A DNA stretch of 64,000 bases, from positions 15,679 to 79,678 of the forward strand of contig CAYFSO010000002.1 in the NCBI GenBank assembly GCA_964345775.1, read 5' to 3'. Positions 45,250-62,955 of this stretch are shown here, piece after piece (positions within the stretch are counted from its first letter, which is position 1; each line of letters opens with the position of its first letter). The notes beneath the pieces were generated by a model. That model did not search any database and had not been told where the DNA came from. It saw nothing but the letters and a program-made list of their open reading frames with translations. A program made the position numbers and the translations under genes. This DNA comes from an uncultured Leptospiraceae bacterium (lineage in GTDB: Bacteria; Spirochaetota; UBA4802; UB4802).

Positions 45250-45496
45250 TGTTTGCTCCTGTTGATAGAATAATAGCAATTGGGGAGTGCATCTTTGTCA
45301 AGCAATTACAAGATTGTCTCACGATTTTATATAAATGTAGCTGTTTATTGGCATCTTTCAACAAGAATTTTCATTAATATGAGCTGAGAAATTCATAATG
45401 GCACAGGTAATTTTACTTGCCATGTACATATTGAAAATGTCAATATAGATGAAGTGTTATTCAACAGGGAATGCGTATTTGAGCAGGAGGGGCAAC

Positions 45497-45856
45497 ATGA
45501 AAACCTGTAAGCGATGTGGCCAGTGCTGCCAGGATGTAAGGCTTGCAGAGCCTCCTGATCTCCTTGAAAAGGCATACCGTTACTGGCGAAAATCCAAAGA
45601 GATCGATCCTTCTTTTTCAGAGATATACCTGATCTATCCAATGCTTGTATTCAAGTACGAGGACCAGTCAGAGGATCTTCCATACCATTATTCGTGTAAA
45701 CATTTCTTAATGGATATTGATGGCAAACCGGGGTGTTCAATTTATGAAATACGTCCGCGAATGTGCAGGGATTTTCCCTATTACGATGAGGTGGAACACC
45801 TGAACAGGGATGAACCCCTGAGTCCATACAGTGGTTGTGGCTATAACGAGGGTTAG
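45497..45856 (+). CDS. YkgJ-family CxxCxxCC metal-chelating (Fe-S/Zn) protein
   Basis: N-terminal CKRCGQCCQ exactly matches the YkgJ-family CxxCxxCC motif. About 120 aa. Confidence 0.6.
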   Translation: MKTCKRCGQCCQDVRLAEPPDLLEKAYRYWRKSKEIDPSFSEIYLIYPMLVFKYEDQSEDLPYHYSCKHFLMDIDGKPGCSIYEIRPRMCRDFPYYDEVEHLNRDEPLSPYSGCGYNEG

Positions 45857-46954
45857 ATGATGGAAGTGGTGATAACTGGAGCCGCCTTTTTCGGCAGCAT
45901 GCTGTCATTCCTTATCGCGATGGGTCAGTTGGTGGTTACCTACAGGAGACTGGAGAATATTAACCTGGCCTTCCTTTTTACCTGTGTGGGGATCGTTCTT
46001 GTGCAGTACGGTTTTATGCTGAATAATACTGTTTCTCAAGTACCCGGGCTTGTATCGTTTCACCTGACCATTCTTTACCTCCTTGGACCGTTATTGTATT
46101 ATGCCTATTACCTGGTTATGCGATTCGAGGATGTTCTGCCCCTTTCCAAGCTACTGTACATGATGCCGGCTGTTTTTGCGCTGATTCTGGATCTATGGTT
46201 CTTAGGCAAACCTGTATTGTACCGCGAAATGATCATAGGTGAAATGTTCAGAAACGATGTTTCAGATATGGTGATGATCATTCGTGTTCTGATACTGGGG
46301 GCAGCTGTGCAGGCTGCATTGTACCTGGGGTTACTCTTAAAGAATATACTCATCTTCTGGAGATTCAGGGATTATTCTGCCATAACCACCATAACGCTGA
46401 TTTATATTGTAATATCAACGGTATCTCTTTTGCTCATAGCTGCAGCATTCATGTTCGGCTCGTTGGTCGTGTTACAGGTAAGCGTGGTATTCATTACCCT
46501 GCTTTTGATGGGTACGTACCTTGTGGGTCAGAGACACCCTGAATTTCTCCAGGTGCTTATCAAGGAGGCCAGGAAAAAGAGGTATGAAAGATCACTTTTA
46601 AATGGCTATGCCACTGATGAGTTGTGCTCACGTTTGCAGCACCTGATGGATGCCGAAAAGGTGTACGCCTGCGAAGATATAACATTGAAACAGCTTGCAG
46701 AGGAACTGGAACTTACCTCGCATCAATTGTCACAGCTGCTAAATGAAAATTTGAACATGAACTTTAATACCTTCGTCAACCAGTTCAGGATCCGTGATGC
46801 GAAACGCATGCTGGTTGAAGAACCGCAAAGATCCGTGTTGTCAATTGCTTACGCGGTAGGGTTCAATTCCAAGTCTTCCTTTTACGATGCGTTCTCTCGA
46901 TTCACCGGAAAAACGCCACAAAAGTACAGAAGGGACAATCTAACCGGTAGGTAA
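45857..46954 (+). CDS. Membrane-anchored AraC-family transcriptional regulator (6-7 TM helices plus C-terminal AraC HTH)
   Basis: Hydrophobic N-terminal 230 aa. C-terminal AraC signature (LSIAYAVGFNSKSSFYDAFSRFTGKTPQKYRR). Confidence 0.7.
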   Translation: MMEVVITGAAFFGSMLSFLIAMGQLVVTYRRLENINLAFLFTCVGIVLVQYGFMLNNTVSQVPGLVSFHLTILYLLGPLLYYAYYLVMRFEDVLPLSKLLYMMPAVFALILDLWFLGKPVLYREMIIGEMFRNDVSDMVMIIRVLILGAAVQAALYLGLLLKNILIFWRFRDYSAITTITLIYIVISTVSLLLIAAAFMFGSLVVLQVSVVFITLLLMGTYLVGQRHPEFLQVLIKEARKKRYERSLLNGYATDELCSRLQHLMDAEKVYACEDITLKQLAEELELTSHQLSQLLNENLNMNFNTFVNQFRIRDAKRMLVEEPQRSVLSIAYAVGFNSKSSFYDAFSRFTGKTPQKYRRDNLTGR

Positions 46955-47160: not shown

Positions 47161-47676
47161 ATGGGAATTCTTTTTTACGCATTGATCAGCCTGATCTCTT
47201 ACCTGGTATTGACTGCCGGTTCAGGGGATGTTTTTATGCTTTGGTCCATCGAAGAACTGGTTGCAGGTGTGGTAATCAGCATGTTCCTGGGGTTTGTCTG
47301 TCACAACATAATTCCCAGACCCGTGAACGTCCAGGCATTTAATCCTCTCAGGTGGATCCTGGTCCTTCTGTATGTTGTCGGGCCATTCTTTATGATGCTG
47401 ATTGTTGCGAATGTTGAAGTAATTTACAGGGTACTTTCCGGAAAGATCAATCCTGCCATCGTGAAAGTTGAAACCGGGCTGAAAAGTGAAACCGGTGCCT
47501 ATATACTTTCTAACTCCATCACCCTTTCTCCAGGTACGCTCACCATAGAGTTGGAGCCTGATACACACGTATTATACATTCACTGCCTTAACTGGAAAAA
47601 GGAAAAAGGTGAAAAGGCGGAGCCCGGGGACGTATCAGGTATATTGCATTTTTTCATTAAGAAGATTTTCGGGTAA
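47161..47676 (+). CDS. Mrp/Mnh antiporter subunit E-like (MbhA-like)
   Basis: First gene of the Mbh-type operon. 171 aa, TM helices, MnhE-like. Confidence 0.65.
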   Translation: MGILFYALISLISYLVLTAGSGDVFMLWSIEELVAGVVISMFLGFVCHNIIPRPVNVQAFNPLRWILVLLYVVGPFFMMLIVANVEVIYRVLSGKINPAIVKVETGLKSETGAYILSNSITLSPGTLTIELEPDTHVLYIHCLNWKKEKGEKAEPGDVSGILHFFIKKIFG

Positions 47677-47691
47677 AAGGGGAGATATTTC

Positions 47692-47952
47692 ATGGAAACC
47701 ATGCTTATAGTATCGGTACTTCTGTTAAGCATATACATACTACTGATCGTGATTCGAATTGCCTTCAGTCATAATGTACCGGAAAGGATCGTTGCCCTTG
47801 ACACCATCAACACCATGATCATAACCATGATGGTTGTACTTGGAGCGGTAGAGCGGAAGGCTCTTTATATCGATATTGGCATTGTATATGGTATTATTTC
47901 ATTTATTGGCACGCTTTATATTGCCAGATACCTGATTGATGTGGGGAAATAA
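47692..47952 (+). CDS. Mrp subunit F-like (MbhB-like)
   Basis: 86 aa, three TM helices, MnhF-like. Confidence 0.65.
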   Translation: METMLIVSVLLLSIYILLIVIRIAFSHNVPERIVALDTINTMIITMMVVLGAVERKALYIDIGIVYGIISFIGTLYIARYLIDVGK

Positions 47953-48305
47953 TGGATACAGCTATTTATATTCTGCTTGGAATAGGATTGTTCGTGAACG
48001 CCATGAGTATCGTGGGAATTCTGCGATTTCCTGATATGTATACCAGGCTGCATGCTGCAACCAAGACAACAACCTTTGGCAGTATTTTCATGGTGATCGC
48101 GGTGATCCTTCACAGCATAATACTGTCAGATGCTGCCAGTACCGTTATTATAATACACTCTGCCGTAGCCCTCCTGGTTGTCATTTTCACCAACCCCATC
48201 AGTGCGCATGCCATAGCCCGCGCGGCCCTGATTGAAGGCATAAAGCCTGCTGGCGCACAGATCAACGAGTTTGACGAGAAAAAGAAGAGGGAGGCAAAAG
48301 GATGA
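47952..48305 (+). CDS. Mrp subunit G-like (MbhC-like)
   Basis: 117 aa MnhG-like. Start overlaps the upstream stop. Confidence 0.65.
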   Translation: MDTAIYILLGIGLFVNAMSIVGILRFPDMYTRLHAATKTTTFGSIFMVIAVILHSIILSDAASTVIIIHSAVALLVVIFTNPISAHAIARAALIEGIKPAGAQINEFDEKKKREAKG

Positions 48306-48547
48306 TCTCATCGGTAATATTTATCATGTTGTCAATAGTTATGATTGTTACAGCCGTTCTCAGCCTTTACTTTCGCGACCTCCTTGCAAGCGTGGTGAGT
48401 TTCTCGGTTATGTCGCTGGTGTTGACGGTAATGTTCTTTCACCTTGACGCTCCCGATGTTGCAATCGCCGAGGCTGGAATCGGTGCTGCGCTGACAGTGT
48501 GTGTGTTTGTGATCGCAATAAAGATGACCAGGAGAAGAGAAGAATGA
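48302..48547 (+). CDS. Small membrane subunit (MbhD-like)
   Basis: 81 aa, 2-3 TM helices. Translationally coupled (ATGA overlaps). Confidence 0.5.
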   Translation: MISSVIFIMLSIVMIVTAVLSLYFRDLLASVVSFSVMSLVLTVMFFHLDAPDVAIAEAGIGAALTVCVFVIAIKMTRRREE

Positions 48548-49374
48548 GACTGGCAAGTTTTTTATCACTGGTATTGATAGCCGGGTTCCTGTTTGTGGGC
48601 ATACTCAGGCTGCACCCGGTTGGTGAGCCGCTGGGTAATCCCCGTGTTTTTGAAGACAGGAGCAGCCAAATTACAGACATCAAGAATGTTGATACCATGG
48701 ATGATTATTACCTCAGGAACGGGCAGACCGAAACAGGCTCCAACAACCTTGTTGCAAGTGTTGTCTTTGATTACCGCAGCTTTGATACGCTTGGTGAAGC
48801 GACCGTGCTTTTTATCGTTGTTTCAAGCATATCCATGCTTCTGTTTACCCTCGTTAAGCGAAGGGGTACAGAAACAAGCGGTGTTAGCCGGATGAGAGAA
48901 TTCCCGGATGGTGTGTCACGCGTTATCACCTTCAGTTCTTTTCTTCTGTATATCTTGATTGTTACATTTGGTATATACCTGGTTGTGCATGGTCACATTT
49001 CTCCTGGAGGGGGATTCCAGGGTGGTGCTGTCATGGCTTCGGCCACTGCGCTGCTCTTAATAAGCTCACTTATAACCAGGAACGTGCAGAAAACCAAAAA
49101 GGTATTCTCATTTTTTGAGTCATTCGGGCTTACACTGTTTATCGGCATCGGTTTTGCAGGGATCGGGGTATCTTTTCTTTTCAATTTCCTGGCAAATGTT
49201 GACCCCACATTTTTTGGTAGAACGATCGGGTTTGGCCCAAACCCTGGCTATCTCGTGTCCGGCGGCACCCTGCCCCTGTTGTCCCTGGCAATTGGTATGG
49301 AGGTGTTTTTCGGCCTGAGTATCATACTGGTTACCATGTATCACGCTGCAAAAGACGAAAAGGCTGGAGAATGA
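48544..49374 (+). CDS. MnhB-domain membrane subunit (MbhE/F-like)
   Basis: About 276 aa polytopic protein, MnhB-like, in the Mbh gene order. Confidence 0.6.
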   Translation: MRLASFLSLVLIAGFLFVGILRLHPVGEPLGNPRVFEDRSSQITDIKNVDTMDDYYLRNGQTETGSNNLVASVVFDYRSFDTLGEATVLFIVVSSISMLLFTLVKRRGTETSGVSRMREFPDGVSRVITFSSFLLYILIVTFGIYLVVHGHISPGGGFQGGAVMASATALLLISSLITRNVQKTKKVFSFFESFGLTLFIGIGFAGIGVSFLFNFLANVDPTFFGRTIGFGPNPGYLVSGGTLPLLSLAIGMEVFFGLSIILVTMYHAAKDEKAGE

Positions 49375-49377
49375 ACT

Positions 49378-49737
49378 ATGTCGGATTTCTTTCTATACGT
49401 GACGGTTGTGCTGCTGATCTTTTTCGGACTGGTGGCCATTCTCTACAAGAGAAACCTTATCAAGTTAGTTATTGCCCTGAACGTTATACAGGCAGGGGTA
49501 AACCTGCTTTTCATAACCCTTGCCTACAGGCCTGATGGGACTGCACCGATTTTTACCCTTGCCCCGGCGGTAGAGGAATTGAAGATGGTACTGCCAACGC
49601 CACAGGCACTCATCCTGACCAATATTGTTATAGGGTTTGGAACCACCGCCCTTATGCTGACACTGGCCATCCTGACCTATCAGAATAATCGTACACTGGA
49701 TATACGCAAGTTAAGAGGTGTAGAGAACAATGACTGA
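49378..49737 (+). CDS. MnhC/NuoK-like subunit (MbhG-like)
   Basis: 119 aa, three TM helices, NuoK/MnhC pattern. Confidence 0.7.
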   Translation: MSDFFLYVTVVLLIFFGLVAILYKRNLIKLVIALNVIQAGVNLLFITLAYRPDGTAPIFTLAPAVEELKMVLPTPQALILTNIVIGFGTTALMLTLAILTYQNNRTLDIRKLRGVENND

Positions 49738-51446
49738 TCATATCCCGGTATTAATAATAGCCCTGCCGCTTCTAACCGCTTTTATGCTGCCTATTGCGGG
49801 CATGATAAGTACACGCCTTCGAAATATACTGGTATTTCTGGTCATCGTGGCGGTTAACCTGATGCTTCTTTCTCTTGTGCAGCGGGTTTCCATGGGGGGA
49901 GAGGTGCTCCATTACGTTGTTGGCGCGGCGAACCCCCAGCAGGTAATAATGGAGGGGCTTGATTTTCCAATACGGATTGTCCTGAAAATAGACGGGTTTT
50001 CTCTTTTCATGGCACTGATTTCAGGGGTCATTACCCTGGTTGTTTTCCTGTTCTCATGGAGTTATATACAGGAAGGGGAGCGCAAAAATTATTACCTGCT
50101 GCTGATGCTGCTGATCCTTGTGGGAATGCTGGGTATCGAGTTTACCAATGACCTTTTTAATCTTTTTGTTTTCCTGGAAGTTTTATCAATTTCGTCCGCG
50201 GCCCTGGTGGCTTATCGAACCGAGCGCAAGCATCCGCCGTATGCAGGATTCAAGTACATGCTGGTCAGTGCCATAGCTACAAGTTTCCTGCTGATGGGTA
50301 TCGCCCTCTGCTATGCCCAGTACGGCTCGTTTAACATGGATTACATCCATGGCATGATGCAATACAGCATGCTGGATAAGATGGCAATGGTCTTCATGCT
50401 GGTTCCACTTGCCATGAAGGCCGGGGCCATACCAATGCACATGTGGGTACCCGATACCTATTCGGAGGCACCGGCACCAATCAGTGCCATGTTGAAAACT
50501 GCCAGCATGGCAAGCCTGTATGCTCTATTCAGGCTGTCTTTGTCCCTGTTCGGTAACCCCCTTGAAGGCCCCGGGATGAACTATCATACACTTGGGTGGT
50601 TTGTCATCGTCCTCGGGGTGTTGTCAATGTTCATAGGGGTAACCATGGCACTTGTGCAGCACGACGTGAAGCGCCTGATGGCATTTCACGCGGTGTCCCA
50701 GACAGGATACATGCTGCTTGGTGTTGGCGTGGGTATCGCGGTACATGCAAACGCCGACGATGGCAGTGCCTTCAACCTTTTTGGAAAGGTGGCCATGATG
50801 GGCGGGATCTTTCACATGATGAACCATGCCTTTTACAAGGGACTACTGTTCCTTACCTCGGGAGTGATGGTACGGAGGTTCGGGACCCGTGGGTATCGCG
50901 GTACATGCAAACGCCGACGATGGCAGTGCCTTCAACCTTTTTGGAAAGGTGGCCATGATGGGCGGGATCTTTCACATGATGAACCATGCCTTTTACAAGG
51001 GACTACTGTTCCTTACCTCGGGAGTGATGGTACGGAGGTTCGGGACCCGTGACCTGAACAGGATGATGGGGATGGCCCACCGGGATACGTTTACGACGAT
51101 TGCATTTATCATCGGGGCCCTGGCCATTGCGGGTATTCCTCCTTTCAATGGGTTTTCATCGAAAATACTTCTTTATGAATCCGTGTATCGTTTCAGCCCC
51201 GTATTGTCAATTATCGCCATTTTTGTTTCGGTGCTGACACTGGCCTCATTCGTAAAAGTGTTTTACAGCGCCTTCCTGGGGCCCGAGAGAAAGGACATGA
51301 TCGTTGATGAAACCCCGGTTTCACCCGGTATGACGCTGGGGATGGGAATACTGTGCGTGCTGGTAGTTGGGTTCGGGCTGTTCCCGGACCTGGTTGTGGG
51401 GATTATCGTAGAACCGGCTGTCAATAGCCTGGTAACAATACTGTGA
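49730..51446 (+). pseudogene. MnhD/NuoL-like proton-pumping antiporter subunit (MbhH-like), frameshifted by a 160-bp tandem duplication
   Basis: ORFs 49730..51052 and 50889..51446 are the two halves of one NuoL/M/N-family gene (conserved MMNHAFYKGLLFL motif) in different frames. A perfect 160-bp repeat at the junction explains the shift. Confidence 0.8.
50728..51051 (+). repeat. Perfect direct tandem duplication, 2 x 160 bp (unit about 50731-50890 repeated at 50891-51050; boundaries ambiguous by up to 3 nt)
   Basis: Read directly: gggtatcgcggtacatgcaaacgccgacga...ggaggttcgggacccgt occurs twice consecutively with no mismatch. Confidence 0.95.
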
Positions 51447-51464
51447 CAGGGGTGATGTGCTAAA

Positions 51465-51818
51465 ATGTTTACAGTGGAAAAGATATTTACTCAAAACACC
51501 GGGATAATCTGGTATCCCCTCCTGCTGATAGCAATATTCCTGCTGCTTGTGTTTATTCTGTGGGTATGGGGTCGGTATTATTTCAGGAATGATTACAATG
51601 AAAAAACAGCACAGGTAAAACCCTTTAACTCGGGAAACCTTGAGGAAATAGATTACTCAATCAGGTCGGGGAACCTTTACTGGGGCTTCAAGAAGGCACT
51701 TGACGGTTTTTATAACTGTATGGAATCACTGCATACCGGCGACCTGAATGATTACATGGTCTGGCTGTTCCTTTCCATCGGTGTAGTGCTTCTCCTGGTC
51801 AGTGGAGGATTATTATGA
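51465..51818 (+). CDS. Small membrane subunit (MbhI-like)
   Basis: 117 aa with two TM helices, at the Mbh operon position between the antiporter and hydrogenase modules. Confidence 0.5.
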   Translation: MFTVEKIFTQNTGIIWYPLLLIAIFLLLVFILWVWGRYYFRNDYNEKTAQVKPFNSGNLEEIDYSIRSGNLYWGFKKALDGFYNCMESLHTGDLNDYMVWLFLSIGVVLLLVSGGLL

Positions 51819-52270
51819 AAAAGAAACTGCTGAATACCTCGTTTAAACGGTCGTTGTGGGCATTCCACATGAACACCGGTTCCTGTAACGCCTGTGATAT
51901 CGAGATACTGGCAACCCTGATGCCACGATATGATGCTGAACGATTTGGCATCAAGCTGGTGGGTACCCCCCGGCACGCTGACGTGCTGCTGGTAACCGGT
52001 ACGGTAACCGAGAAGATAAAGGACCGTGTACTGCGTGTGTATGAACAGGTGCCCGATCCGAAGCTGGTAATAGTAATTGGCGGATGCGGTTCCACCAAAG
52101 GTGTATACCAGGAGTCCTATGCCATGACGGGACCAATAGATAATTATATTCCCGTTGACGTGTACATCCCCGGCTGTCCACCCAGGCCTGAGGCCATACT
52201 GTACGGGGTTGCCAGGGCATGGGAAAAGCTTGAATTATTGATGAAAAAAGGAAAGAAGAATGCATCCTGA
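51815..52270 (+). CDS. [NiFe]-hydrogenase small subunit, NuoB-like (MbhJ-like)
   Basis: [4Fe-4S] ligands in NuoB spacing (GSCNACD...GGCGSTKG...PGCPP). Confidence 0.9.
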   Translation: MKKKLLNTSFKRSLWAFHMNTGSCNACDIEILATLMPRYDAERFGIKLVGTPRHADVLLVTGTVTEKIKDRVLRVYEQVPDPKLVIVIGGCGSTKGVYQESYAMTGPIDNYIPVDVYIPGCPPRPEAILYGVARAWEKLELLMKKGKKNAS

Positions 52271-52733
52271 TGATATAGTAGCAAGGTTCAGCAGTGAACT
52301 GAAAGGGCATTTTACCGCCTCAAGAATACAGGAAACACCCGAGGGCAGGGATGGTTTAAATAAAAGGACCAGGCTGTGGCTCAACGTGGACCGTGACGTA
52401 TTTCACCGGGCTGTGGCTCTCTTGAAAGAATTCGGTCCACCCCATATTTGTACTCCAATGGCATCAAAAGAATACGATCAAACAATGGAGCTCATTTATC
52501 CGTTCACGTTGAACTATGCCGCGGAACGATACGGTGAACTGGTTGTGATAATCGTGGTAGATATACCCAGGGATGACATGCGCATCAGGAGTGTCAGCGA
52601 CCTGGTACCGGGTATACTGTACATGGAACGTGAAACAATGGAAATGCTTGGCGTCATTATTGAAGATATCCCTGATCCAAGGCGCCTTTTTACTACTGAC
52701 GGCCTGGGTGATTCTTTTCCCATGCGGGACTGA
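52260..52733 (+). CDS. NuoC-like 30-kDa subunit (MbhK-like)
   Basis: 157 aa NuoC/HycE-N-like fold, located between NuoB-like and NuoD-like genes. Confidence 0.75.
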   Translation: MHPDDIVARFSSELKGHFTASRIQETPEGRDGLNKRTRLWLNVDRDVFHRAVALLKEFGPPHICTPMASKEYDQTMELIYPFTLNYAAERYGELVVIIVVDIPRDDMRIRSVSDLVPGILYMERETMEMLGVIIEDIPDPRRLFTTDGLGDSFPMRD

Positions 52734-52775
52734 CGGGAACTTTTGCACTAATAACTGTATGGAGATGTTGTAACC

Positions 52776-54014
52776 ATGGAAAAATCAATAACCTATCCTT
52801 TACAGATAGGGCCTACACATCCGGCATTCAAGGAACCAGTACGATTCTCTTTCAGGATGGACGGGGAGCGAGTATCGGATGTTGATATAGACCTGGGGTA
52901 TACCCACAGGGCCATCGAGGTAATTTCGAAAGAACGTAATTTCATCCAGACCATTTATCTGCTGGAACGGATATGTGGTATCTGCTCTGTGTCACATCCC
53001 CTGGCGTATTGCCTGGCAGTGGAGGAGGTGGCAGGGATGGAGGTCCCTCCCCGTGCAAAGTATATACGTACGATAGTGGGTGAGCTCGAACGCCTTCATT
53101 CGCACCTGTTGTGGGCAGGGGTTGCCGCCCACGAGATCGGGTTTGACACCCTCTTCCTCTATACATGGAATATCCGCGAGAAGGTGCTTGACTGTCTGGA
53201 ACAGTTCACCGGTAACAGGGTTAATTACGCGCTGCTTACTATTGGTGGAGTACGCCGGGATATTACGGAAGAGGTTTTCCCCGTAATCGAGGAGACGCTG
53301 GAATACTATACCGAACTGTTTCAGCGTGCATCAGAGATACTGCTTGATGACCAGAGCATACGTTTCAGATGTGAAGGGACGGGTATACTCACATATGAAC
53401 AGGCTGTCGCGTTATGTGCGGTGGGACCCAACGCACGTGCCTCGGGACTGGCGAAGGATGTCAGGGTGGATTACCCGATACTGGCGTACCCGGACATGGA
53501 CTGGCTTAAGCCGGTAACCCCCAGGGACATTGGAAAGGAACCGGTTGGTGACGTGTATGACCGCATGGTGGTCAGGGTGATGGAGATCAGGCAGTCGGTG
53601 GATATTATACGATACTGCCTGGATAACCTGCCTGACGGCCCAATCGCGCTGGAAAAAGGTGCCATTAAGATTATAAACAAGCTTAAGAAAGTGCAGGGAG
53701 AAGGTATAGGCCGTTACGAGGCCCCCAGGGGAGAGGTGGCCCATTACGATATTCTTGATCTGAACGAGTGCCCGGTGCAGATGAAGGTAAAGGCACCAAC
53801 GTATTCCAATGCCTTCACATGGGTACCCATGCTGCAGGGGACGGAAATAGCGGATATCCCCATCGTTATCGCATCAATTGACCCCTGTGTAGCCTGTGCT
53901 GACCGCATGACCATACTCAGGAATGACGGTTCAGTGGAAGCATTGAACGCAGAGTATTTACACAACCTGAGCGTTAAAAAGATGAAGGAGGTTAGGTCCC
54001 GATGCAGTGGTTGA
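52776..54014 (+). CDS. Group-4 [NiFe]-hydrogenase large subunit, NuoD-like (MbhL-like)
   Basis: N-terminal Ni-Fe ligand motif RICGICSVSH and C-terminal DPCVACADR, followed by a 34-aa C-terminal extension. Confidence 0.92.
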   Translation: MEKSITYPLQIGPTHPAFKEPVRFSFRMDGERVSDVDIDLGYTHRAIEVISKERNFIQTIYLLERICGICSVSHPLAYCLAVEEVAGMEVPPRAKYIRTIVGELERLHSHLLWAGVAAHEIGFDTLFLYTWNIREKVLDCLEQFTGNRVNYALLTIGGVRRDITEEVFPVIEETLEYYTELFQRASEILLDDQSIRFRCEGTGILTYEQAVALCAVGPNARASGLAKDVRVDYPILAYPDMDWLKPVTPRDIGKEPVGDVYDRMVVRVMEIRQSVDIIRYCLDNLPDGPIALEKGAIKIINKLKKVQGEGIGRYEAPRGEVAHYDILDLNECPVQMKVKAPTYSNAFTWVPMLQGTEIADIPIVIASIDPCVACADRMTILRNDGSVEALNAEYLHNLSVKKMKEVRSRCSG

Positions 54015-55036
54015 TATATATATTTGTCATACCTGTAACGGTGCTTATTGCGGGCGGGATAATCGGACTGTACGCGAAGGGGATAGACCGCAAGTTGGCC
54101 GCCTATTACCAGTCCCGTATCGGCCCGCCGGTACGACAGCCGTTTTATGATATCAGCAAGCTGATGCAAAAGCAGACCATAATACCTGAAAATGCGGTTG
54201 GGTGGATATTCAGGGGAGCGCCTTACATGGCACTTGCTTCCAGTGTTATTTTGCTTGTATACGTGCTTGTCCCGTACTTCGCGTGGATCGGTGGTGCCGA
54301 TTTCTTTTTCAGCAACAGTGGTGATATTATCCTGGTGCTGTACCTTTTGATGATCCCATCAATAGCACTGGTTGCCGGAGGGTTCGCATCGGGCTCACCA
54401 TATGCAACTGTTGGGGCACAGCGTGAAATGGTTATACTCATGTGTGTAGAACTGCCTCTGGCGGTAATCGCGGTTACGTTCGCCTGGCGTTTGTCTAACG
54501 TTGCACCCGCTTTACCGCCGTTTTCTCTTGTTACCATGACAAGTCATCCGTTATGGACGGGCATGGGGCCCTTCGGCATACTGGGAGGAATGCTGCTGGC
54601 ACTGTCAATGGCGGTGGTGATACCGGCCGAACTCGCAAAGATACCCTTTGACCAGGCGGAAGCGGAGACCGAGATAGCCGAGGGGCTTCTTGCAGAATAT
54701 TCCGGTAAATACCTGGCCTTTTACCAGGTAGCTGATGGTGTAAAGTCGCTCGCGGTAATTTCTCTGGCGGTGATATTGTTTTTTCCCCACGGATTTACGC
54801 AGATGACGGGTTACGTGGTGCAGCCGGGCGGGATGGATATTACCCTCCTGGTTGATACGGGCCTATTCATGGCGAAGGTGTTTGCTGTCTATTTCGTCTC
54901 GGTTACAACCGTACGAATAGCCATGGCGAGGTTCAAAATTTCACAGGTTGCAAAACTGTTTTTGATCACCATAACCGTTATGTGTTTGGCCGGTTACGTG
55001 TTGATCACGCTTGATCCGGTTATTGCAACACTTTGA
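54002..55036 (+). CDS. NuoH-like membrane subunit (MbhM-like)
   Basis: 344 aa polytopic, NuoH/HycD pattern. Confidence 0.8.
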   Translation: MQWLIYIFVIPVTVLIAGGIIGLYAKGIDRKLAAYYQSRIGPPVRQPFYDISKLMQKQTIIPENAVGWIFRGAPYMALASSVILLVYVLVPYFAWIGGADFFFSNSGDIILVLYLLMIPSIALVAGGFASGSPYATVGAQREMVILMCVELPLAVIAVTFAWRLSNVAPALPPFSLVTMTSHPLWTGMGPFGILGGMLLALSMAVVIPAELAKIPFDQAEAETEIAEGLLAEYSGKYLAFYQVADGVKSLAVISLAVILFFPHGFTQMTGYVVQPGGMDITLLVDTGLFMAKVFAVYFVSVTTVRIAMARFKISQVAKLFLITITVMCLAGYVLITLDPVIATL

Positions 55037-55054
55037 TTCACGAGGAGCGCAACA

Positions 55055-55489
55055 ATGCTTGGTGCAGTATATAAAGTAATTGAACAGTTTTTTTCAAACA
55101 AATCAACCAATCTTTTCCCGGTAAAATATATTCCCGAATCAACCGGGGATATGCTTCAAGATGGCGGGATCAACCCACCGGTACCTCTACCGGAAGGCAT
55201 AAGGGGCCGGCTTGCGTATGATTATGATACCTGTATAGGGTGTGCCATGTGTGAAAAAGTGTGCCCTGCCAGGGCCATTGAGCTTTATCCCGTAAAGGCG
55301 GGTGAAAAGAAATCAAAGCGTATAGTAATATTTCTTTCACGGTGTACCTATTGTGGCGAATGTGTTGATATCTGTCCCAAGAACTGTATAACCATGGAAA
55401 AATTCGTGTTCATGGCCGGTTACGATAAATACGGGGATGAAATGATTATCGGATCTGCTGAACGGGTGAAGAACGAGATTGAAGATTAA
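55055..55489 (+). CDS. NuoI-like 2x[4Fe-4S] ferredoxin subunit (MbhN-like)
   Basis: Two CxxCxxCxxxCP motifs (CIGCAMCEKVCP, CTYCGECVDICP). Confidence 0.85.
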   Translation: MLGAVYKVIEQFFSNKSTNLFPVKYIPESTGDMLQDGGINPPVPLPEGIRGRLAYDYDTCIGCAMCEKVCPARAIELYPVKAGEKKSKRIVIFLSRCTYCGECVDICPKNCITMEKFVFMAGYDKYGDEMIIGSAERVKNEIED

Positions 55490-55500
55490 GGCTGAAAGCT

Positions 55501-55764
55501 GTGTTCAGAAAAAAGAAAATTCGAGTTACCATAAAGCTATACAGCGGATTACATAAGGATGCCGGGTTGAAAGAGTATGATCCTTACAGTGGCATTGTGC
55601 AGGAAGTGAATTCCGGCACCAGGGTACGGAAAATTGTAAAGGAACTCGGCATCCCGCATCCATATTCACTGGCGTATTTTATAAACGGTGAACGTGTTGG
55701 TCTCTGGAAAAAGATGCATGATGGTGATGAGCTTTCCTGTTTCAGACCATCTGGCGGTGGTTGA
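55501..55764 (+). CDS. MoaD/ThiS-family beta-grasp sulfur-carrier-like protein with C-terminal Gly-Gly
   Basis: 87 aa ending ...DGDELSCFRPSGGG, the ThiS/MoaD pattern. Lies 12 nt after the mbhN-like stop. Confidence 0.55.
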   Translation: MFRKKKIRVTIKLYSGLHKDAGLKEYDPYSGIVQEVNSGTRVRKIVKELGIPHPYSLAYFINGERVGLWKKMHDGDELSCFRPSGGG

Positions 55765-55767
55765 GCT

Positions 55768-56499
55768 TCATAAAAGGTAATCATCCAGCCTGTGAGAAAG
55801 AGACCGGAATATATTGGTGCGCGCGTTCTTGTAAAGCCTGTCACAATGCTTCAACATTTCCTTCACATCCGATCTTTTCGTGTCTTTTTTATACGGGCAC
55901 TTGTTCTCGTACCCATTGAAATCTTTAAGGTTCCTGTACCAGATCACTTCCTTCTCGGAAAGATAGGCCAGGGGCCGTATTATTTCCAATTCCCCATCGA
56001 ATAATTCAAGACGTGGTGGCATGGTTGACATGTTCCCATGGTATACCATGTTCATAATAAATGTTTCCAGTATGTCGTCACGATGATGCCCAAAAGCGAT
56101 CTTTTTGCATCCAAGATCCCGGGCCAGAGTAAAAAGGGTTTTCCTTCTATGCCATGAACAAATAAAACAGGGTGTTTTGCTGGTATCGGAAAAATCCAGT
56201 GTAACCCGGCATACATGAAAATCTATGTTATAGGATTCGCAAAATCTTCCATAGTCTTCAACCTCGTCTCCACTGGTAAAATTGGTAACATGTACGTATG
56301 CAGTATGAATGGTATAGTTCACGGGCATATGAATGCGTCGTTGTGCAAGGGCGTCAAGCAGGACCATGGAGTCCTTCCCCCCTGAAAAAGCGACCAGCAC
56401 CGAATCGTCTGCCTTGATCATGGAGTAATCGTTTATTGCGCTGCCAACTTTTCTGCGAAGGCGCCCAAGGTACTTTTTTTCTTTATTATTTTTCATCAA
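55768..56499 (-). CDS. ttcA: tRNA 2-thiocytidine(32) synthetase TtcA
   Basis: PP-loop SGGKDS, GHHRDDILET, MPPRL, IRPLAYLSEKE and CxxC/C cluster ligands, all close to E. coli TtcA. Confidence 0.85.
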   Translation of the reverse strand: MMKNNKEKKYLGRLRRKVGSAINDYSMIKADDSVLVAFSGGKDSMVLLDALAQRRIHMPVNYTIHTAYVHVTNFTSGDEVEDYGRFCESYNIDFHVCRVTLDFSDTSKTPCFICSWHRRKTLFTLARDLGCKKIAFGHHRDDILETFIMNMVYHGNMSTMPPRLELFDGELEIIRPLAYLSEKEVIWYRNLKDFNGYENKCPYKKDTKRSDVKEMLKHCDRLYKNARTNIFRSLSHRLDDYLL

Positions 56500-57037: not shown

Positions 57038-58092
57038 CCTCGAACCAGTATATACAGCTGTATCAAATCAATACCGTACCCGGTGAAGCATACCTGTTAA
57101 ATGGCGGGCAGGTATTTTTTTTTGTATCTGAAAGCGACAAATACATTATAAAAGGGAAGAATGTAATTGTTGGTGCAACAGAGCTCATTTTAAAAGAGAA
57201 AGACCCCTCCATCTCCAGGCTGGAAACCGCAATTTCCACAAGGGATGCTTCCATTAAAAAGATTACACAGGAGCGCTTTTTACAGGGCCTTAATGTATTC
57301 TCATTTCTTCTAAACGTATCAATGGTTATTGCCAAACAGGTGGTGCTAACCAATAATATCATGAACAATAATGTATCAGGCCTTGATCCCGACCAGGCAA
57401 GGGACAAGGATAACTGCATTGCGTATTTTCGCATAGTTTCAAAACTAAGAGATGAATATGATAAACGAAGGCTTCCCTGGTTGAAAGAGCTTGTCTCCAG
57501 GTTTGAAACCAGCCTGACCTACAAGAAAGGTGAAGCATTCAGCAGAACTGATGAACCGGTATTGATATCAACTCCGCATGAGCTTTCTGATAACATGATA
57601 GAGTACAATACCGGATCATTTATATTCGAAGAAGAAGACATCGGAGATGAGATGTACATTTTGGAATCGGGAACGCTGGATGTGTTGATTCACGGTAAAA
57701 AAGTAGCGACGTTACAGGACAAGGGTTCTGTAATCGGGGAAATAGCCATGTTGCTTGGACAGAAACGAACAGCATCACTGCAGGCACGTAACAACGTTGT
57801 GGTAACGCGTGTAACAAAAGAGAAACTGAAAAGTACTTCAGGGCAGGAGGGGGTACAGGTATTGAAATCAGTTGCAATTTCTCTTGCAATGAAACACAGT
57901 AACAACATTATTCGTATTCACGAGATAAATGAAAGCCTTGCTGAAAAGTATTTTGGCGGGGATGCCGAAGAGAAAGTACCGGGATCTCTTGACCAGTCAA
58001 AGAACTACACGGAACTATTATCTCTTAAAAACGCGGTTGAAAAAATTGCCCAGCAGAAGGATGCTGATTACCTTGCTGACATCCTTCGCTGA
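57034..58092 (+). CDS. Protein with cyclic-nucleotide-binding domain(s), no DNA-binding domain
   Basis: C-terminal cNMP-binding fold (GDEMYILESGTLDV...GEIAML...RTASLQA) and a degenerate N-terminal copy. Start overlaps the CheY stop (ATGA). Confidence 0.6.
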   Translation: MTSNQYIQLYQINTVPGEAYLLNGGQVFFFVSESDKYIIKGKNVIVGATELILKEKDPSISRLETAISTRDASIKKITQERFLQGLNVFSFLLNVSMVIAKQVVLTNNIMNNNVSGLDPDQARDKDNCIAYFRIVSKLRDEYDKRRLPWLKELVSRFETSLTYKKGEAFSRTDEPVLISTPHELSDNMIEYNTGSFIFEEEDIGDEMYILESGTLDVLIHGKKVATLQDKGSVIGEIAMLLGQKRTASLQARNNVVVTRVTKEKLKSTSGQEGVQVLKSVAISLAMKHSNNIIRIHEINESLAEKYFGGDAEEKVPGSLDQSKNYTELLSLKNAVEKIAQQKDADYLADILR

Positions 58093-58118
58093 TCAATTCC
58101 AATTCAGGGAAACTGCGT

Positions 58119-58658
58119 TTAAGTAAGCGCGATTTCACCCTTTTTAAGGGATTTCAGCCAGTTCATTTCTGCTTTCAGGTGGTTCTCAAGGTATGAGTAT
58201 ACATGAACCTGGGAATTATCTTCGGGATCCTTCTGTTCTTCAGCGATCTTTTCCATGATAATATCCATTTTTTCCTTGATAAATTCCATCCTGTCCTCAA
58301 CGAACTGTTCTTTCTGGTCATCACTGAGACTGTTCAGGAACATCAGTACGATATCAATATCAAAATGGATCATGTTATGCTCGAAATACTGCTTGAGCAT
58401 TTTCTTGTAGTACTTTCTCCCTGCGGGCATGATCTGGTAAATGTAACGTTCGGGATTACCGCCTTCCTTTTCAGTCCCGACTTTTTTGACCCATCCGTTC
58501 TCTACGGATTTCTTGATGGCATAATAGATTGAACCGAATTTGATATCTACGTAGTCTTCCAGTCGTTCGACAATCTTTTTCTTGATTTCATAACCGTAGA
58601 GGTTTTCTTCCATGAGCAGTCCGAGTATGGTGATTTCAATTTTCATGGTGTACCTCAC
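58119..58658 (-). CDS. PadR-family transcriptional regulator with extended C-terminal domain
   Basis: N-terminal winged HTH with PadR signature (LLMEENLYGYEI...GWV). Confidence 0.75.
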   Translation of the reverse strand: MRYTMKIEITILGLLMEENLYGYEIKKKIVERLEDYVDIKFGSIYYAIKKSVENGWVKKVGTEKEGGNPERYIYQIMPAGRKYYKKMLKQYFEHNMIHFDIDIVLMFLNSLSDDQKEQFVEDRMEFIKEKMDIIMEKIAEEQKDPEDNSQVHVYSYLENHLKAEMNWLKSLKKGEIALT

Positions 58659-58863
58659 ATCGCCTTTTCATTTTAATAATGATAATAATATAAATTAATA
58701 TATTAAAGAAATCAATGACATTATGTAATATAATAAAAAAAACATTCATAAAATTTAAATTTTATTATAAAATATTAAACCATGATAGTCAAAATTTAAT
58801 ACTATTGAAAGGGACGCGTGTTGCAGCATTTGAAAGGATAAATAGATGTTGTTATATTTATAG

Positions 58864-58879
58864 TGACGTAATAGCGTCA
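58864..58879. promoter_or_regulatory. Inverted repeat TGACG-N6-CGTCA in the divergent PadR / flagellin-like intergenic region, 22 nt upstream of the flagellin-like start codon
   Basis: Read directly. The 5-bp arms are perfectly complementary. Confidence 0.3.
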
Positions 58880-58900
58880 ATATACCATGGCGAATGAAAA

Positions 58901-59734
58901 ATGCAAGACAATATAAATAAAATATCACGGTTTATGCTTTTTCCACTATTGCTGGTAAGTATAACCATTTTTCCGGGAGCTGGTAGTGGGGATCCCATGT
59001 CCTACATGATAATGCCCAAGGCCAGTAACGTGGTTATTTACGGCAGTGGCAGCGACTATTTCGTTGTAAGGAAACAACATTTTCTGAATATGAATATACG
59101 GGAAAATATTCAAAAGCTTTCATCGGGTCTCAGGATTGTTACTCCCCAGGTTGATCCTGCAGGGTTCGCCGTTGCAGAGAAAATGGAATCCATACTGCAG
59201 CAGGTTAAGCAGCAATCAGTGAACGAAGAAGACATGCGGAATTACATGAAATTCGTAGAATCTGCATTGAAACAGGACTCCGATATACTTATGAGAATGC
59301 GTCAGCTGGTTTTGCGTGCATCGGGGGGAATTTTAAATACAGATGATCGGCAACTGGTGCAATCTGAAATTGACATGATGAAAGAGGCGATAAACCATAA
59401 TGCACGGTTCAGCACGTTTAACACCAAAAAGGTTATTCCCGATCTAACAGCTGATGAACTGGGAGTACAGGATGTGAACGTGGTGAGAACCCCTCACCAT
59501 GCAATTGATAAAATTGATAATGCCATGCAAAGGATACAGCGTATGCGATCCCGGCTGGGTACGCAGGATAATATTCTTAAGATGCGTATTCAGGGTAAAA
59601 AGCTATATTACGTAAACCTGCAGGCTGCGGAAAGCAATATCAGGGATCTTGACATGGCGTCAGAGATAAGAAAAATGATCACGAATAAGACACTTTTAAA
59701 AACCCAGTACGGCCTGATCCTCTATAACAAATAA
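58901..59734 (+). CDS. Flagellin-family protein (D0/D1 core only) with an N-terminal signal-peptide-like hydrophobic extension
   Basis: Flagellin N-domain (SSGLRI...DPAG.AVAEKM...MR.L...A..G) and C-domain (MRSRLGTQDN...NLQAAESNIRDLDMASEI) signatures. Residues 10-30 (FMLFPLLLVSITIFPGAGSG) look like a Sec signal. Confidence 0.7.
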   Translation: MQDNINKISRFMLFPLLLVSITIFPGAGSGDPMSYMIMPKASNVVIYGSGSDYFVVRKQHFLNMNIRENIQKLSSGLRIVTPQVDPAGFAVAEKMESILQQVKQQSVNEEDMRNYMKFVESALKQDSDILMRMRQLVLRASGGILNTDDRQLVQSEIDMMKEAINHNARFSTFNTKKVIPDLTADELGVQDVNVVRTPHHAIDKIDNAMQRIQRMRSRLGTQDNILKMRIQGKKLYYVNLQAAESNIRDLDMASEIRKMITNKTLLKTQYGLILYNK

Positions 59735-59755
59735 ATACCTAATTGAGCAGGTTGA

Positions 59756-60343
59756 TTACGAGGAAAGGTGCTTTAAAGTTGTCTTTATAAGGACTTCAAT
59801 TGATAAATCCGGTTCTGAAGAAAGTATATCTTCAAGTACCGGTACAATCTTCTTCTCTTCAAAGCCGAGAGATGTTAATGCTTCAACAGCTTCCGATTTT
59901 GCAGTAGTTGGAACTGCGGTGCCCGGTGAAAGAGCCTCAAGCTGCTTGATCTTTCTGTTCAACTCAAAAAGCAGTTTTTCTGCCTTGCTTTTCCCGATGC
60001 CCGGGATCTTGATAAGCCTGTCAACACGGTTTGCGTGCACGGATTCAATCAGTTCTGGAACAGTAATGCCGGATAGAATGGACAACGCCATTGATGGCCC
60101 GATACCGGTAATATGTATAAGGAGAATGAACAACTTGCGTTCTTCGGGGGTGGCAAAGCCAAAAAGTTTTATCAGGTCTTCCCTTACATGAGTATATACA
60201 TGCAGGGTGATTTCACCAGGTGAAACATGCATTGTCTCATAGGTTGATATGGGGATATGCAGATGATATCCTACGCCCTGCACATCCAGTATCATTTCGG
60301 TTGGTCTTAAATCGGTAATTATTCCCCGTAAACTTCCGATCAT
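59756..60343 (-). CDS. ruvA: Holliday junction DNA helicase RuvA
   Basis: N-terminal OB domain MIGSLRG..., HhH motifs (IPGIGKSKAEKL), C-terminal domain III. Confidence 0.9.
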   Translation of the reverse strand: MIGSLRGIITDLRPTEMILDVQGVGYHLHIPISTYETMHVSPGEITLHVYTHVREDLIKLFGFATPEERKLFILLIHITGIGPSMALSILSGITVPELIESVHANRVDRLIKIPGIGKSKAEKLLFELNRKIKQLEALSPGTAVPTTAKSEAVEALTSLGFEEKKIVPVLEDILSSEPDLSIEVLIKTTLKHLSS

Positions 60344-60349
60344 CGGATA

Positions 60350-60841
60350 TTAGCCTCCACTGCGTAGTATTGCCTTCTGGCGGTCCATGCCAAGTGAATG
60401 ACAGAGTGCTATGGCAAGTGCATCGGCTGCGTCATCAGGACTGGGAAGTGATTGCAGGTTTAGTATGCGTTTTATCATTGCCTGCATCTGCTCCTTGGGG
60501 GCGTGGCCATATCCTGTCAAAGCCTGCTTTACCTGTGTTGGTGTATATTCAGTATATTCGATGGCGTTCATTCGGAGGGTGAGAACTATAACACCAAGGG
60601 CCTGTGCAACGTTAATGACTGTCCTGGTATTTTTTGATACGTACAGCTTTTCAAGCCCACACACCGCAGGAGAGTGAGCATGTATAATATCAGTCAGATC
60701 CCGGTGAATGTGAAGAAGTCTCTCTTCAAGGGGTTCGGATGCAGCAGTTTCAATTACCCCGTAGCCCCTGACCATCATATCTTTTCCCATGACAGCCCAG
60801 CCACATCTGCCAAAACCAGGGTCAATACCAAGGATACTCAC
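60350..60841 (-). CDS. ruvC: Holliday junction resolvase RuvC
   Basis: MSILGIDPG catalytic N-terminus, conserved acidic residues, 163 aa. Confidence 0.9.
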   Translation of the reverse strand: MSILGIDPGFGRCGWAVMGKDMMVRGYGVIETAASEPLEERLLHIHRDLTDIIHAHSPAVCGLEKLYVSKNTRTVINVAQALGVIVLTLRMNAIEYTEYTPTQVKQALTGYGHAPKEQMQAMIKRILNLQSLPSPDDAADALAIALCHSLGMDRQKAILRSGG

Positions 60842-61593
60842 TGTCCCTCGCTTAAGTTTGCCATAACCTCGTCCGATATATCGTAGTTTGAATAGACATT
60901 CTGTACGTCATCATGATCTTCAAGGAGGTCAATAAGCTTCATGCATTGTCGTGCCTTCTGTTCATCAAGCGGGATGGTAGTCTGCGGCACGAAAGTTATG
61001 TCATTATAGGTGACCTGGTACCCGATATCTTTTATGGCTTCCAGCACGTCATTGAAAAATTCCGGCGGCATTGTCACTGTGATATTCCCATCCTCTGTCT
61101 TGATGTCCTCTATATCATGTTCAAGCAACTGCTCTATCACGTCATCTTCAGATATATCAGATCCATCGACCATGATGATGCCTTTCCTGTCGAAAAGATA
61201 TGATACACATCCATTTTCACCAAGGTTACCGTTGTTCTTGGAGAAGATGGTGCGAATTTCGGGCATGGTCCTGTTCTTGTTGTCAGTGAGTACATCAGCC
61301 ATTATAGCCACGCCACCCGGACCGTACCCCTCGTACCTTGTTTCTTCGTACGTTGAACCCTCGAGCGCGCCGGTTCCTTTTTTTATTGCACGGTCAATGT
61401 TATCATTGGGCATGTTGTTCTCACGTGCCTTGTTTACTGCGGTCCTGAGGCGGGAATTTGAGTTCAGGTCGTCCCCACCTTCCCTGGCGGAAACGGTTAT
61501 TTCTCGAATTAGCTTGGTAAATATCTTGCCCTTTTTGGCATCCTGGGATGCCTTTCTATGCTTGATATTTGCCCACTTGGAATGTCCAGCCAT
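60838..61593 (-). CDS. yebC: YebC/PmpR-family transcriptional regulator
   Basis: MAGHSKWANIKHRK signature N-terminus, 251 aa. Classic yebC-ruvC-ruvA order. Confidence 0.9.
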   Translation of the reverse strand: MAGHSKWANIKHRKASQDAKKGKIFTKLIREITVSAREGGDDLNSNSRLRTAVNKARENNMPNDNIDRAIKKGTGALEGSTYEETRYEGYGPGGVAIMADVLTDNKNRTMPEIRTIFSKNNGNLGENGCVSYLFDRKGIIMVDGSDISEDDVIEQLLEHDIEDIKTEDGNITVTMPPEFFNDVLEAIKDIGYQVTYNDITFVPQTTIPLDEQKARQCMKLIDLLEDHDDVQNVYSNYDISDEVMANLSEGQ

Positions 61594-61650
61594 GTAATAC
61601 CTCTGTTCATTAAATATACGATAACAATTGTAGCGAACGGATGCAATTTT

Positions 61651-62955
61651 TCAATAGCCCCTGTTAATTTTCAACTGTAATTTTGATATTTTTTCCCGTG
61701 CTTTTCGTGGTTGATATGCCATTGCAAGGGCCTGGCGGTACCATTTAAGCGCTTCCTGGAGCTGATTGTCATGCTCATATGCATCAGCAAGGTTCCACCT
61801 TACCCTTCCCGGATTCAGCTTGTCCAGTTCATGTTTTTTCCTGCGTAATTCAAGTTCTTTGCGCGCTTTCTCTTCCACCGCGTACTCGTATTCAGTATAC
61901 GCGCTGTAATCCCTGTTCTTTAAAAGCGAGGACTTCAATGAATTAATTTTTTTATCAAGACTATTCACATCCGATTCAATTTTTTCAATTTCTTGAACCA
62001 GTTTTTCCTGGTACTGTATTGCACCTGTATAGTTCTGTATGGCAATTTTAAAGTTAAGCTCACTGAGATGTATGTCTCCTGAATACTCCATTGATTTGCC
62101 TCTACGGTACACATCCCCTTCGGGCAGCAGGTTCAATGCTTTCTCAAATGATGCAAGCGCCAGGGGATAATTCCCGGTACGGGCGTAACAGAGAGTGCCC
62201 AGGGCAAAGTGTATATTCGCATCATCGGGTTGAATTTCAAGGTATTCCCTGTAATATTTTACCGTGTTCAGGTGCCTTCCGGTCTCAGCGTGAAGGTTGG
62301 CAAGTGTTATATATAGAGATGCATCTTCCGGTGGTTTACTCCTTGACTGTACATATCGTTCAAGATGGTAAATTGCTCTTTTCTTTATTCCATGTCTTGC
62401 AAGGGATTTGCCAAGTTCAAGGGAGTAGTCATAGTTTTCGGGCTTAAGTTCATAGGCAGTTTCAAGTGCCGCATGGTAGGCTTTCACGTCCCCCCTTTTT
62501 TTATATACGCCTGCTATACGATAATAAACCGCATGGTCTTGTTCCGGTTTCAACACGCGATAGCGCAGCGATTGAACAAGGTGGTTCAATGACGTATCAA
62601 ATTGCTTTATTTCATCAGCACAGATACCAGCGTTGTAATGCAGGGTGAAAAGGTCGGGATTATTCTCGATAAAGAAAGGCTTTGCCTTTCTCTCTACAAA
62701 GAGCTTTTCAAGATCAATGCCTCTTTCTGCCTGCTTTACAGAAATGAAATCCGTTGGTATGCGCTTATCTCCAACCCTTTCTCCGTACTTCTCTGTGAGA
62801 ACCTGTTCAATCTGCTGAAGGGCCTTGGCGTATTCCCCATTCTGCATCAGGTTGGTGTATTCCGGTGTTCCTTCCTGGCCGGAGGCCGTTGCGATGCTGT
62901 ACTGGAAAAGGAAGGCAGCAAGCACTACCCTGATAAAACGGTACTTTATATTCAT
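61651..62955 (-). CDS. Secreted TPR-repeat protein
   Basis: Signal peptide, then multiple TPR units and a C-terminal coiled-coil segment. Confidence 0.7.
   Translation of the reverse strand: MNIKYRFIRVVLAAFLFQYSIATASGQEGTPEYTNLMQNGEYAKALQQIEQVLTEKYGERVGDKRIPTDFISVKQAERGIDLEKLFVERKAKPFFIENNPDLFTLHYNAGICADEIKQFDTSLNHLVQSLRYRVLKPEQDHAVYYRIAGVYKKRGDVKAYHAALETAYELKPENYDYSLELGKSLARHGIKKRAIYHLERYVQSRSKPPEDASLYITLANLHAETGRHLNTVKYYREYLEIQPDDANIHFALGTLCYARTGNYPLALASFEKALNLLPEGDVYRRGKSMEYSGDIHLSELNFKIAIQNYTGAIQYQEKLVQEIEKIESDVNSLDKKINSLKSSLLKNRDYSAYTEYEYAVEEKARKELELRRKKHELDKLNPGRVRWNLADAYEHDNQLQEALKWYRQALAMAYQPRKAREKISKLQLKINRGY

Follow-up and report, generated by a model that had tools for sequence, protein, structure and literature searches.

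Does an uncultured spirochaete of hypersaline mats carry a broken subunit gene for its hydrogenase, or does the break belong to a single assembly of its genome? The question is raised by a stretch of 64,000 nucleotides from an uncultured Leptospiraceae bacterium (assembly GCA_964345775.1, contig CAYFSO010000002.1, positions 15,679 to 79,678 of the forward strand), hereafter the window, in whose coordinates all positions are given. In this window, mbhH, which encodes the predicted antiporter-like subunit of an Mbh-type hydrogenase, is split by a perfect tandem duplication of 160 bp. The duplication is private to one assembly, and the reading that we favour, while giving it an even chance, is a real and young subpopulation variant in a spirochaete of the Atacama mats, captured in that assembly.

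The duplication and the gene it interrupts

The duplicated unit occupies positions 50728-50887 and 50888-51047 on the plus strand, where a repeat search and a direct string comparison both find identical 160-mers lying back to back. Tandem Repeats Finder returns a single array (50728-51051, period 160, 2.0 copies, 100% matches, no indels), and the two identical adjacent copies reported in a preliminary description of the window, made from its letters alone, are thus confirmed. The array exceeds two full copies by 4 bp, as CGTG opens the unit and the right flank alike (50728-50731 and 50888-50891 in the copies, 51048-51051 on the plus strand in the flank). The single-copy sequence accordingly contains two CGTG tetranucleotides 160 bp apart, and the duplication junction falls on them; junction microhomology of at least 4 bp has a computed chance probability of 1.6% for random junctions. 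The first copy runs from the third base of codon 333 to the end of codon 386 of mbhH and contains the HxxxHAxxK motif, while the second, 100% identical to the first, is extra DNA that is missing from all related contigs. The copy-copy junction reads GGTACGGAGGTTCGGGACC up to the border and CGTGGGTATCGCGGTACATG beyond it, and the borders can be recognised by diagnostic 39-40-mers, namely GGTACGGAGGTTCGGGACCCGTGGGTATCGCGGTACATG for the copy-copy junction, CATGCTGCTTGGTGTTGGCGTGGGTATCGCGGTACATGC for the left junction and GGTACGGAGGTTCGGGACCCGTGACCTGAACAGGATGATG for the right junction. A perfect tandem repeat of 160 bp cannot have a chance origin. In the whole 64-kb window there is no other direct or inverted repeat of at least 40 bp and no N, and the copies abut directly without a scaffold join gap; there is therefore no sign of a systematic scaffolding problem.

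As deposited, mbhH is not a single uninterrupted reading frame, being split by the 160-bp insertion into two overlapping open reading frames (ORFs). The 5' fragment (49730..51052, plus strand) encodes 440 aa, of which residues 1-387 are native and the last 53 out of frame, forming a basic, Cys/Trp-rich nonsense tail that is closed by a TGA at 51050-51052. The preliminary description was right about this frameshift and slightly off about the stop, which it placed 2 nt after the second copy; the ORF ends 5 nt past the second full copy, that is, 1 nt past the end given by Tandem Repeats Finder. The remainder of the gene does lie in another frame at 50889..51446 (plus strand), as had been described: this 3' fragment has a GTG start and encodes 185 aa that correspond to native residues 334-518 in the native frame. 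The public record calls a shorter 3' gene at this place, of 139 aa from an ATG at 51027 (51027-51446). Together the two ORFs hold every native residue, with residues 334-387 occurring twice, and when one copy is deleted in silico a single frame of 1557 nt and 518 aa is obtained.

The product of this repaired frame can be assigned to a family with some precision. PF00361 (Proton_antipo_M) matches the 5' fragment over profile positions 2-225 (E=1.9e-40) and the 3' fragment over profile positions 194-294 (E=2.7e-15), the overlap on the profile being the duplicated segment. The 518-aa protein aligns end to end with MbhH of the Pyrococcus furiosus MBH (6CFW chain H; query 8-514 against chain 6-496, E=4.2e-94), and its best NCBIfam model is NF006240, matched over residues 2-516 against model positions 3-509 of 521 with 576.8 bits, below the curated cut-off of 662. 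The ion-path motifs of the P. furiosus protein are kept, with ifHmmNHAfyKgLLF against iyHtvNHAlmKaLLF in 6CFW_H (consensus HxxNHAxxKxLLF) and ppfNGFsSK against pplNGFaSK (consensus NGFxSK). HxxxHAxxK starts at residue 362 of the repaired protein and the GFSSK lysine region lies at 421-425; the conserved antiporter motif that the duplicated unit had been said to span is indeed there, reading HMMNHAFYKGLLFLTSGVMVRRFGTR at residues 362-387. The single 518-aa protein of the NuoL/M/N family foreseen by the preliminary description is therefore what the removal of one copy restores, and the end-to-end alignment that it had proposed as a check is obtained, homologues being matched over 100% of length. 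Judged by these alignments, the gene is an MbhH-type subunit of the NuoL/M/N (MrpA/D) family.

One copy in relatives and in the same population

The nearest named genomes are metagenome-assembled genomes (MAGs) of uncultured Leptospiraceae or Spirochaetes, at 88-89% amino acid identity. Comparison with orthologous genes, which the preliminary description had suggested, shows one copy in three spirochaete MAGs, whose mbhH is exactly 1557 nt long and gapless against the repaired gene at 79% nucleotide identity. Homologues of 518 aa occur at 94%, 89% and 72% identity; the best 120 homologues span the whole query, most of them with a length near 518 aa, and none of these 120 is split in the way seen in the window. 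The gapless orthologues and the full-length homologues therefore indicate that one copy is the ancestral and normal state. As a separate observation, two MbhH homologues (P0044 and P0046, 57% identical) are about 640 aa long, exceeding the other family members by roughly 120 residues.

The population itself can also be examined, as exact-product look-ups with the flanking mbhG, mbhI and one downstream gene retrieved contigs of the same population from four independent assemblies. All carry one copy: JGI 3300012002 (contig Ga0153774_1000510, here L066, 39.6 kb), with 5 mismatches against the window in 17 kb; ENA ERZ922771 (contig k127_657649, from run ERR2437277 of PRJEB25599), at 99.93-99.94% identity to the window; Logan ERR1878606 (contig _180802, 10,051 bp), at 100.000% identity over its whole length; and Logan ERR2437277 (contig _229953), at 100% identity. 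In 4/4 assemblies mbhH is one 518-aa gene, and the frame is intact in contigs L066-L072, L077 and L078. By BLASTN, each related contig gives two collinear blocks that overlap by exactly the unit, and the extra 160 bp is therefore the only structural difference from the window. Both flanks of the window are equally identical to the same contigs, which made the search for a switch of single-nucleotide polymorphism pattern at the junction, as a mark of a chimeric join, uninformative. Run ERR1878606 comes from the Tebenquiche mat (PMC7872239), and PRJEB25599 comprises mats of Tebenquiche as well as La Brava, two sites of the Salar de Atacama (10.1101/870428).

These contigs show that the single-copy allele is the normal, dominant allele of the population, and that, over 10 kb, the duplication is all that separates the two-copy allele from a single-copy contig. 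Since every other available assembly of the same population has a single copy, one of them on a contig that is 100% identical over 10 kb, a lineage-wide pseudogene is ruled out. Moreover, the one-copy contigs are 99.93-100% identical, so the event must be younger than the near-zero divergence among them.

Origin of the second copy

How, then, would the second copy have come about? A very recent 160-bp tandem duplication inside mbhH may have been produced by replication slippage or template switching between the two CGTG, which the normal gene carries at a distance of 160 bp. Its carriers would be a subpopulation of an uncultured, Leptospiraceae-like spirochaete of the Salar de Atacama hypersaline mats, and one assembly would have captured it. 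Short junction microhomology is the classical footprint of slippage, and the locus has the other features of a microhomology-mediated tandem duplication: perfect head-to-tail copies, CGTG at both ends of the unit as it stands in the ancestral sequence, a length not divisible by three, a disrupted gene and the possibility of precise reversion. It does not differ from such duplications in kind; however, it stands in a metagenome-derived contig and not in a clonal isolate, so that its reality is not to be assumed. The operon apart from mbhH is intact and identical to that of the same-population contigs, as expected of a very young mutation. Slippage-promoting DNA structure was sought in the unit and none was found (z = -1.2; no unusual single-strand structure). 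On this reading, the duplication would have arisen in vivo.

Several observations weigh against a real duplication. (i), in a collection of 15 billion proteins, the 440-aa product (P0122) and the 139-aa C-terminal product ('MVRRFGTR...', P0125) come from a single NCBI contig of 89,140 bp, evidently the window's own; the other three members of the P0122 cluster, from JGI, Logan and ENA, are all 518 aa. (ii), the frameshifted tail found no candidate in a collection of 5.8 billion proteins, a result that, as the 440-aa product is folded into the P0001 cluster, speaks for cluster representatives only: no other representative carries the tail. (iii), no independent assembly or protein record was found with the copy-copy junction or the frameshifted tail. 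(iv), the Logan contigs of ERR1878606 and ERR2437277 run unbroken through both unit borders. A Logan assembly is so built that each 31-mer occurs in it at most once (PMC12424806), and a Logan contig could therefore never display two copies; a common junction would instead break the contig at the unit borders, and the unbroken contigs thus suggest that the duplication is absent from these two runs or a minor variant there. The unbroken ENA MEGAHIT k127 contig points the same way, towards a duplication that is absent or minor.

Two further look-ups have to be read within the reach of the collections concerned. A scan of metagenome contigs missed the copy-copy junction and the normal junction alike, though L066 holds the normal one, which means that the collection does not cover (or masks) the locus and that the scan is uninformative. 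Exact look-ups of the two window ORFs in the contig index returned no contig. Neither did that of 51024-51446, the product predicted for a right-hand unitig; partial products are not in the protein collection. Separately, one Logan contig, L075 (ERR2437276_174103; window 49241-50757), stops 30 bases into the unit. Position 50757 is the last base of the last 31-mer to include the left-flank base 50727; a k=31 unitig would have to stop there if a second path entered the unit start, as it would with reads of the copy-copy junction in that run. The position could be a coincidence, e.g. a coverage break, with a chance of about 2% by a rough estimate (some 10 contig ends, few qualifying positions), and we treat it as a lead and not as evidence.

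Among the alternatives, an assembly artefact has to be taken most seriously, and we hold it to be a substantial possibility, if a less than even one. Scaffolding, bin re-assembly, gap closing or contig merging would then have given a single-copy organism its second copy, by concatenating overlapping contig ends or by walking a repeat or loop one time too many. The single copy in every other assembly of the population (one of them 100.000% identical over 10,051 bp) and the restriction of the split products to one NCBI contig both fit such an origin. Local assembly errors are moreover a documented class in MAGs: repeats with the wrong number of copies, sequence doubled where scaffolds are joined, and identical stretches hundreds of bp long that were artificially concatenated have all been described, with IDBA-UD under particular suspicion (Chen et al. 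2020, PMC7111523). The window is identical to data from the Tebenquiche mat, which were assembled with IDBA-UD (maxk 151) in the original study (PMC7872239). Like these errors, the repeat is a perfect tandem of hundreds of bp in a metagenomic contig, missing from other assemblies of the organism, and an operon that is flawless but for a frameshift in one core subunit has the look of an error.

Other features of the locus rather argue against an assembly error. There are no Ns at or near the junction and two copies only, the 4-bp microhomology is only 1.6% likely at arbitrary join points, and neither a second such duplication nor any more errors occur in the 64 kb. The published IDBA-UD run, with its maxk of 151, had no k or k-1 equal to the 160 bp of the unit or to the 164 bp that include the microhomology, and de Bruijn graph assemblers would be expected to need junction-spanning reads for such a loop. 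To our knowledge, neither 160 nor 164 bp is k or k-1 in the usual MEGAHIT or metaSPAdes k-mer lists.

An in-vitro chimera, in which a polymerase switched template at CGTG during library polymerase chain reaction or whole-genome amplification and the product was then assembled, is in our view improbable. The microhomology footprint is present and is also typical of in-vitro template switching, and the duplication is missing from all other data sets, but any single chimera is a rare molecule that would not be expected to prevail in the consensus of an 89-kb contig, and there is no indication that the sample was amplified. A false duplication from strain heterozygosity is ruled out by the perfect identity of the copies. 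The preliminary description had left three readings side by side, a young duplication that may act as a switch, population heterogeneity and an artefact; the single-copy contigs narrow them to a young subpopulation variant or an artefact.

Possible consequences for the complex, and its genomic setting

If the young duplication is real, what would it do to the complex? The allele is probably null or strongly hypomorphic. The native sequence of the 5' product ends at residue 387, so that this product is without the conserved GFxSK lysine region (421-425), and the 3' product is without the N-terminal two thirds. By homology with NuoL/M/N, the antiporter-like fold is presumably broken in its second five-helix repeat, between the HxxxHAxxK and GFxSK helices. 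A break between the motifs of two successive helices, together with the missing parts, argues that the allele is most likely null for ion translocation. The premature stop may in addition lower the expression of the downstream hydrogenase-module genes (mbhI-N) through polarity.

A split gene that still works is conceivable, as the duplication has put a Shine-Dalgarno-like GGAGG (50874..50878, plus strand) before the second copy, with 10 nt between it and the GTG at 50889. At the genuine start of mbhM (54002; window 53984-54004) the spacing is the same (GGAGG-N10-start), and the 3' fragment of mbhH may therefore be translated on its own. This created start context might allow a two-piece MbhH, made of the 5' fragment (1-387 plus tail) and the separately started 3' fragment (334-518), which together cover every native residue. 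We nevertheless think such a protein improbable: the break apparently lies within the second five-helix repeat, its flanking motifs both being conserved in the 6CFW_H alignment, a 53-residue nonsense tail and a doubled segment (residues 334-387) would have to be accommodated, and no natural homologue among the best 120 matches is split in this manner. The preliminary description had held the whole complex to be probably non-functional if the duplication is real; this stays a prediction, which the start context of the 3' fragment slightly weakens.

A perfect direct repeat of 160 bp can be removed by homologous recombination or slippage, which is a generic property of such repeats. The preliminary description had gone further and raised a heritable on/off switch. 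As a selected, reversible phase variation, it would make Mbh-dependent H2-evolving respiration in the mat population go off and on as the unit is gained and precisely lost. Provided that the two-copy form is real, public data do contain both states, and the repeat is long enough to be lost by homologous recombination. There is also a precedent in pneumococcal cap3A, which toggles the capsule: ORF-internal tandem duplications are its off state, and their loss restores the on state (Waite et al. 2001, as summarised in PMC11163986), just as the loss of one copy would restore mbhH. Compared with cap3A, the present case consists of one duplication allele in one contig, with no sign of recurrence, and the one-copy contigs come from four assemblies. 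No other duplication lengths are seen either (cluster members of 518, 518, 518 and 440 aa; contigs L066-L078), the unit is without special DNA structure (z = -1.2), and only a 4-bp homology drives the forward step, so that switching to the off state would be rare. There is no support for a programmed switch: reversion is open to every tandem duplication, neither recurrent nor alternative duplications were found in these clusters and contigs, and reversibility appears incidental. We regard a selected phase switch as very improbable, and we would give hardly any credence to the combined proposal that a real duplication forms one state of a recombination-reversible Mbh on/off polymorphism maintained in the mat spirochaete, which would extend phase variation of the cap3A type to an energy-conserving complex.

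The event is ordinary in kind, being either a frameshifting tandem duplication or a local assembly error. Its importance is mainly one of curation, as the deposited genome would score as lacking an intact mbhH (440-aa and 139-aa fragments). The population elsewhere has the complete 518-aa gene in an intact operon, and inferences about the metabolism of this spirochaete lineage, here ferredoxin-driven H2 evolution in the Atacama mats, should therefore use the single-copy form. Should both alleles prove to coexist, the locus would offer a neat natural case of a duplication that has only just arisen and abolishes function, though no new kind of mechanism.

The operon to which mbhH belongs comprises 13 genes (47161..55489, plus strand), as the preliminary description had counted; it is recognised by profile matches and has the same gene order in contigs L066-L078. 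Its first part consists of MnhE, MnhF, MnhG, MbhD, an MbhE/MnhB fusion, an MnhC-like protein and the split MbhH, and its second part of MbhI, NuoB-like and NuoC-like subunits, the NiFe large subunit, a NuoH-like subunit and a 2x[4Fe-4S] subunit. The families matched in the Mrp-like module are MNHE, MrpF_PhaF, PhaG_MnhG, MbhD, MbhE plus MnhB and Oxidored_q2; MbhI matches NF053600 with E=6e-22 and 77.9 bits, below the cut-off of 95. The downstream module matches, in order, PF01058, PF00329, PF00146 and Fer4 families, with PF00346 and PF00374 for the large subunit. This large subunit keeps both Cys pairs, in RICGICSVSH near the N-terminus and DPCVAC near the C-terminus, which makes this a hydrogenase-type group 4 complex. 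The operon is thus predicted from its gene content to encode an Mrp-linked group 4 [NiFe]-hydrogenase, with ferredoxin-dependent H2 evolution coupled to ion translocation. Content and order are those of the P. furiosus MBH (Mrp-like module plus NuoB/C/D/H/I-like module). The differences are that the host here is bacterial (spirochaete-like), that mbhH is interrupted in the window and that MbhE and the MnhB-like protein are fused into one 276-aa protein (48544-49374; PF20501 plus PF04039), which is why there are 13 genes and not 14.

The surroundings of the operon are conserved as well. A gene of the CxxCxxCC family (PF03692) and a gene for an AraC-type regulator (45857..46954, plus strand, immediately upstream of the operon) form a pair at 45449-46954 that is conserved in the related JGI and ENA contigs, and this pair may be the operon's regulator. 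Directly after mbhN, an ORF of 87 aa (55501-55764, plus strand) is ThiS/ubiquitin-like, with weak Pfam matches and no NCBIfam match. It is convergent with a PP-loop ATPase gene at 55768-56499 (minus strand), and the two are found together in all related contigs.

A few observations concern other sequences. Eight contigs (L004, L011, L014, L024, L032, L038, L044 and L046) carry antiporter-like genes at 28-30% identity that score like the surrounding Methanomassiliicoccales/Methanomethylophilaceae matches. They are labelled, as 'cleanbin' isolates, Ruminococcus, Bifidobacteriaceae, Bacteroides ovatus, Dialister hominis, Prevotella hominis, Bacteroidaceae, Lachnospiraceae and Firmicutes, and the scores suggest archaeal contigs mis-binned into bacterial genomes. 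Elsewhere in the window, a short imperfect tandem repeat of 21 bp (58249-58297; 2.0-2.2 copies, 76-85% matches) lies in the region of a minus-strand PadR-like gene. Finally, the cumulative GC skew climbs steadily from position 1 to about 60 kb and then falls (about 58000-62000), and this turn coincides with the switch to minus-strand genes (ruvA, ruvC, yebC-like).

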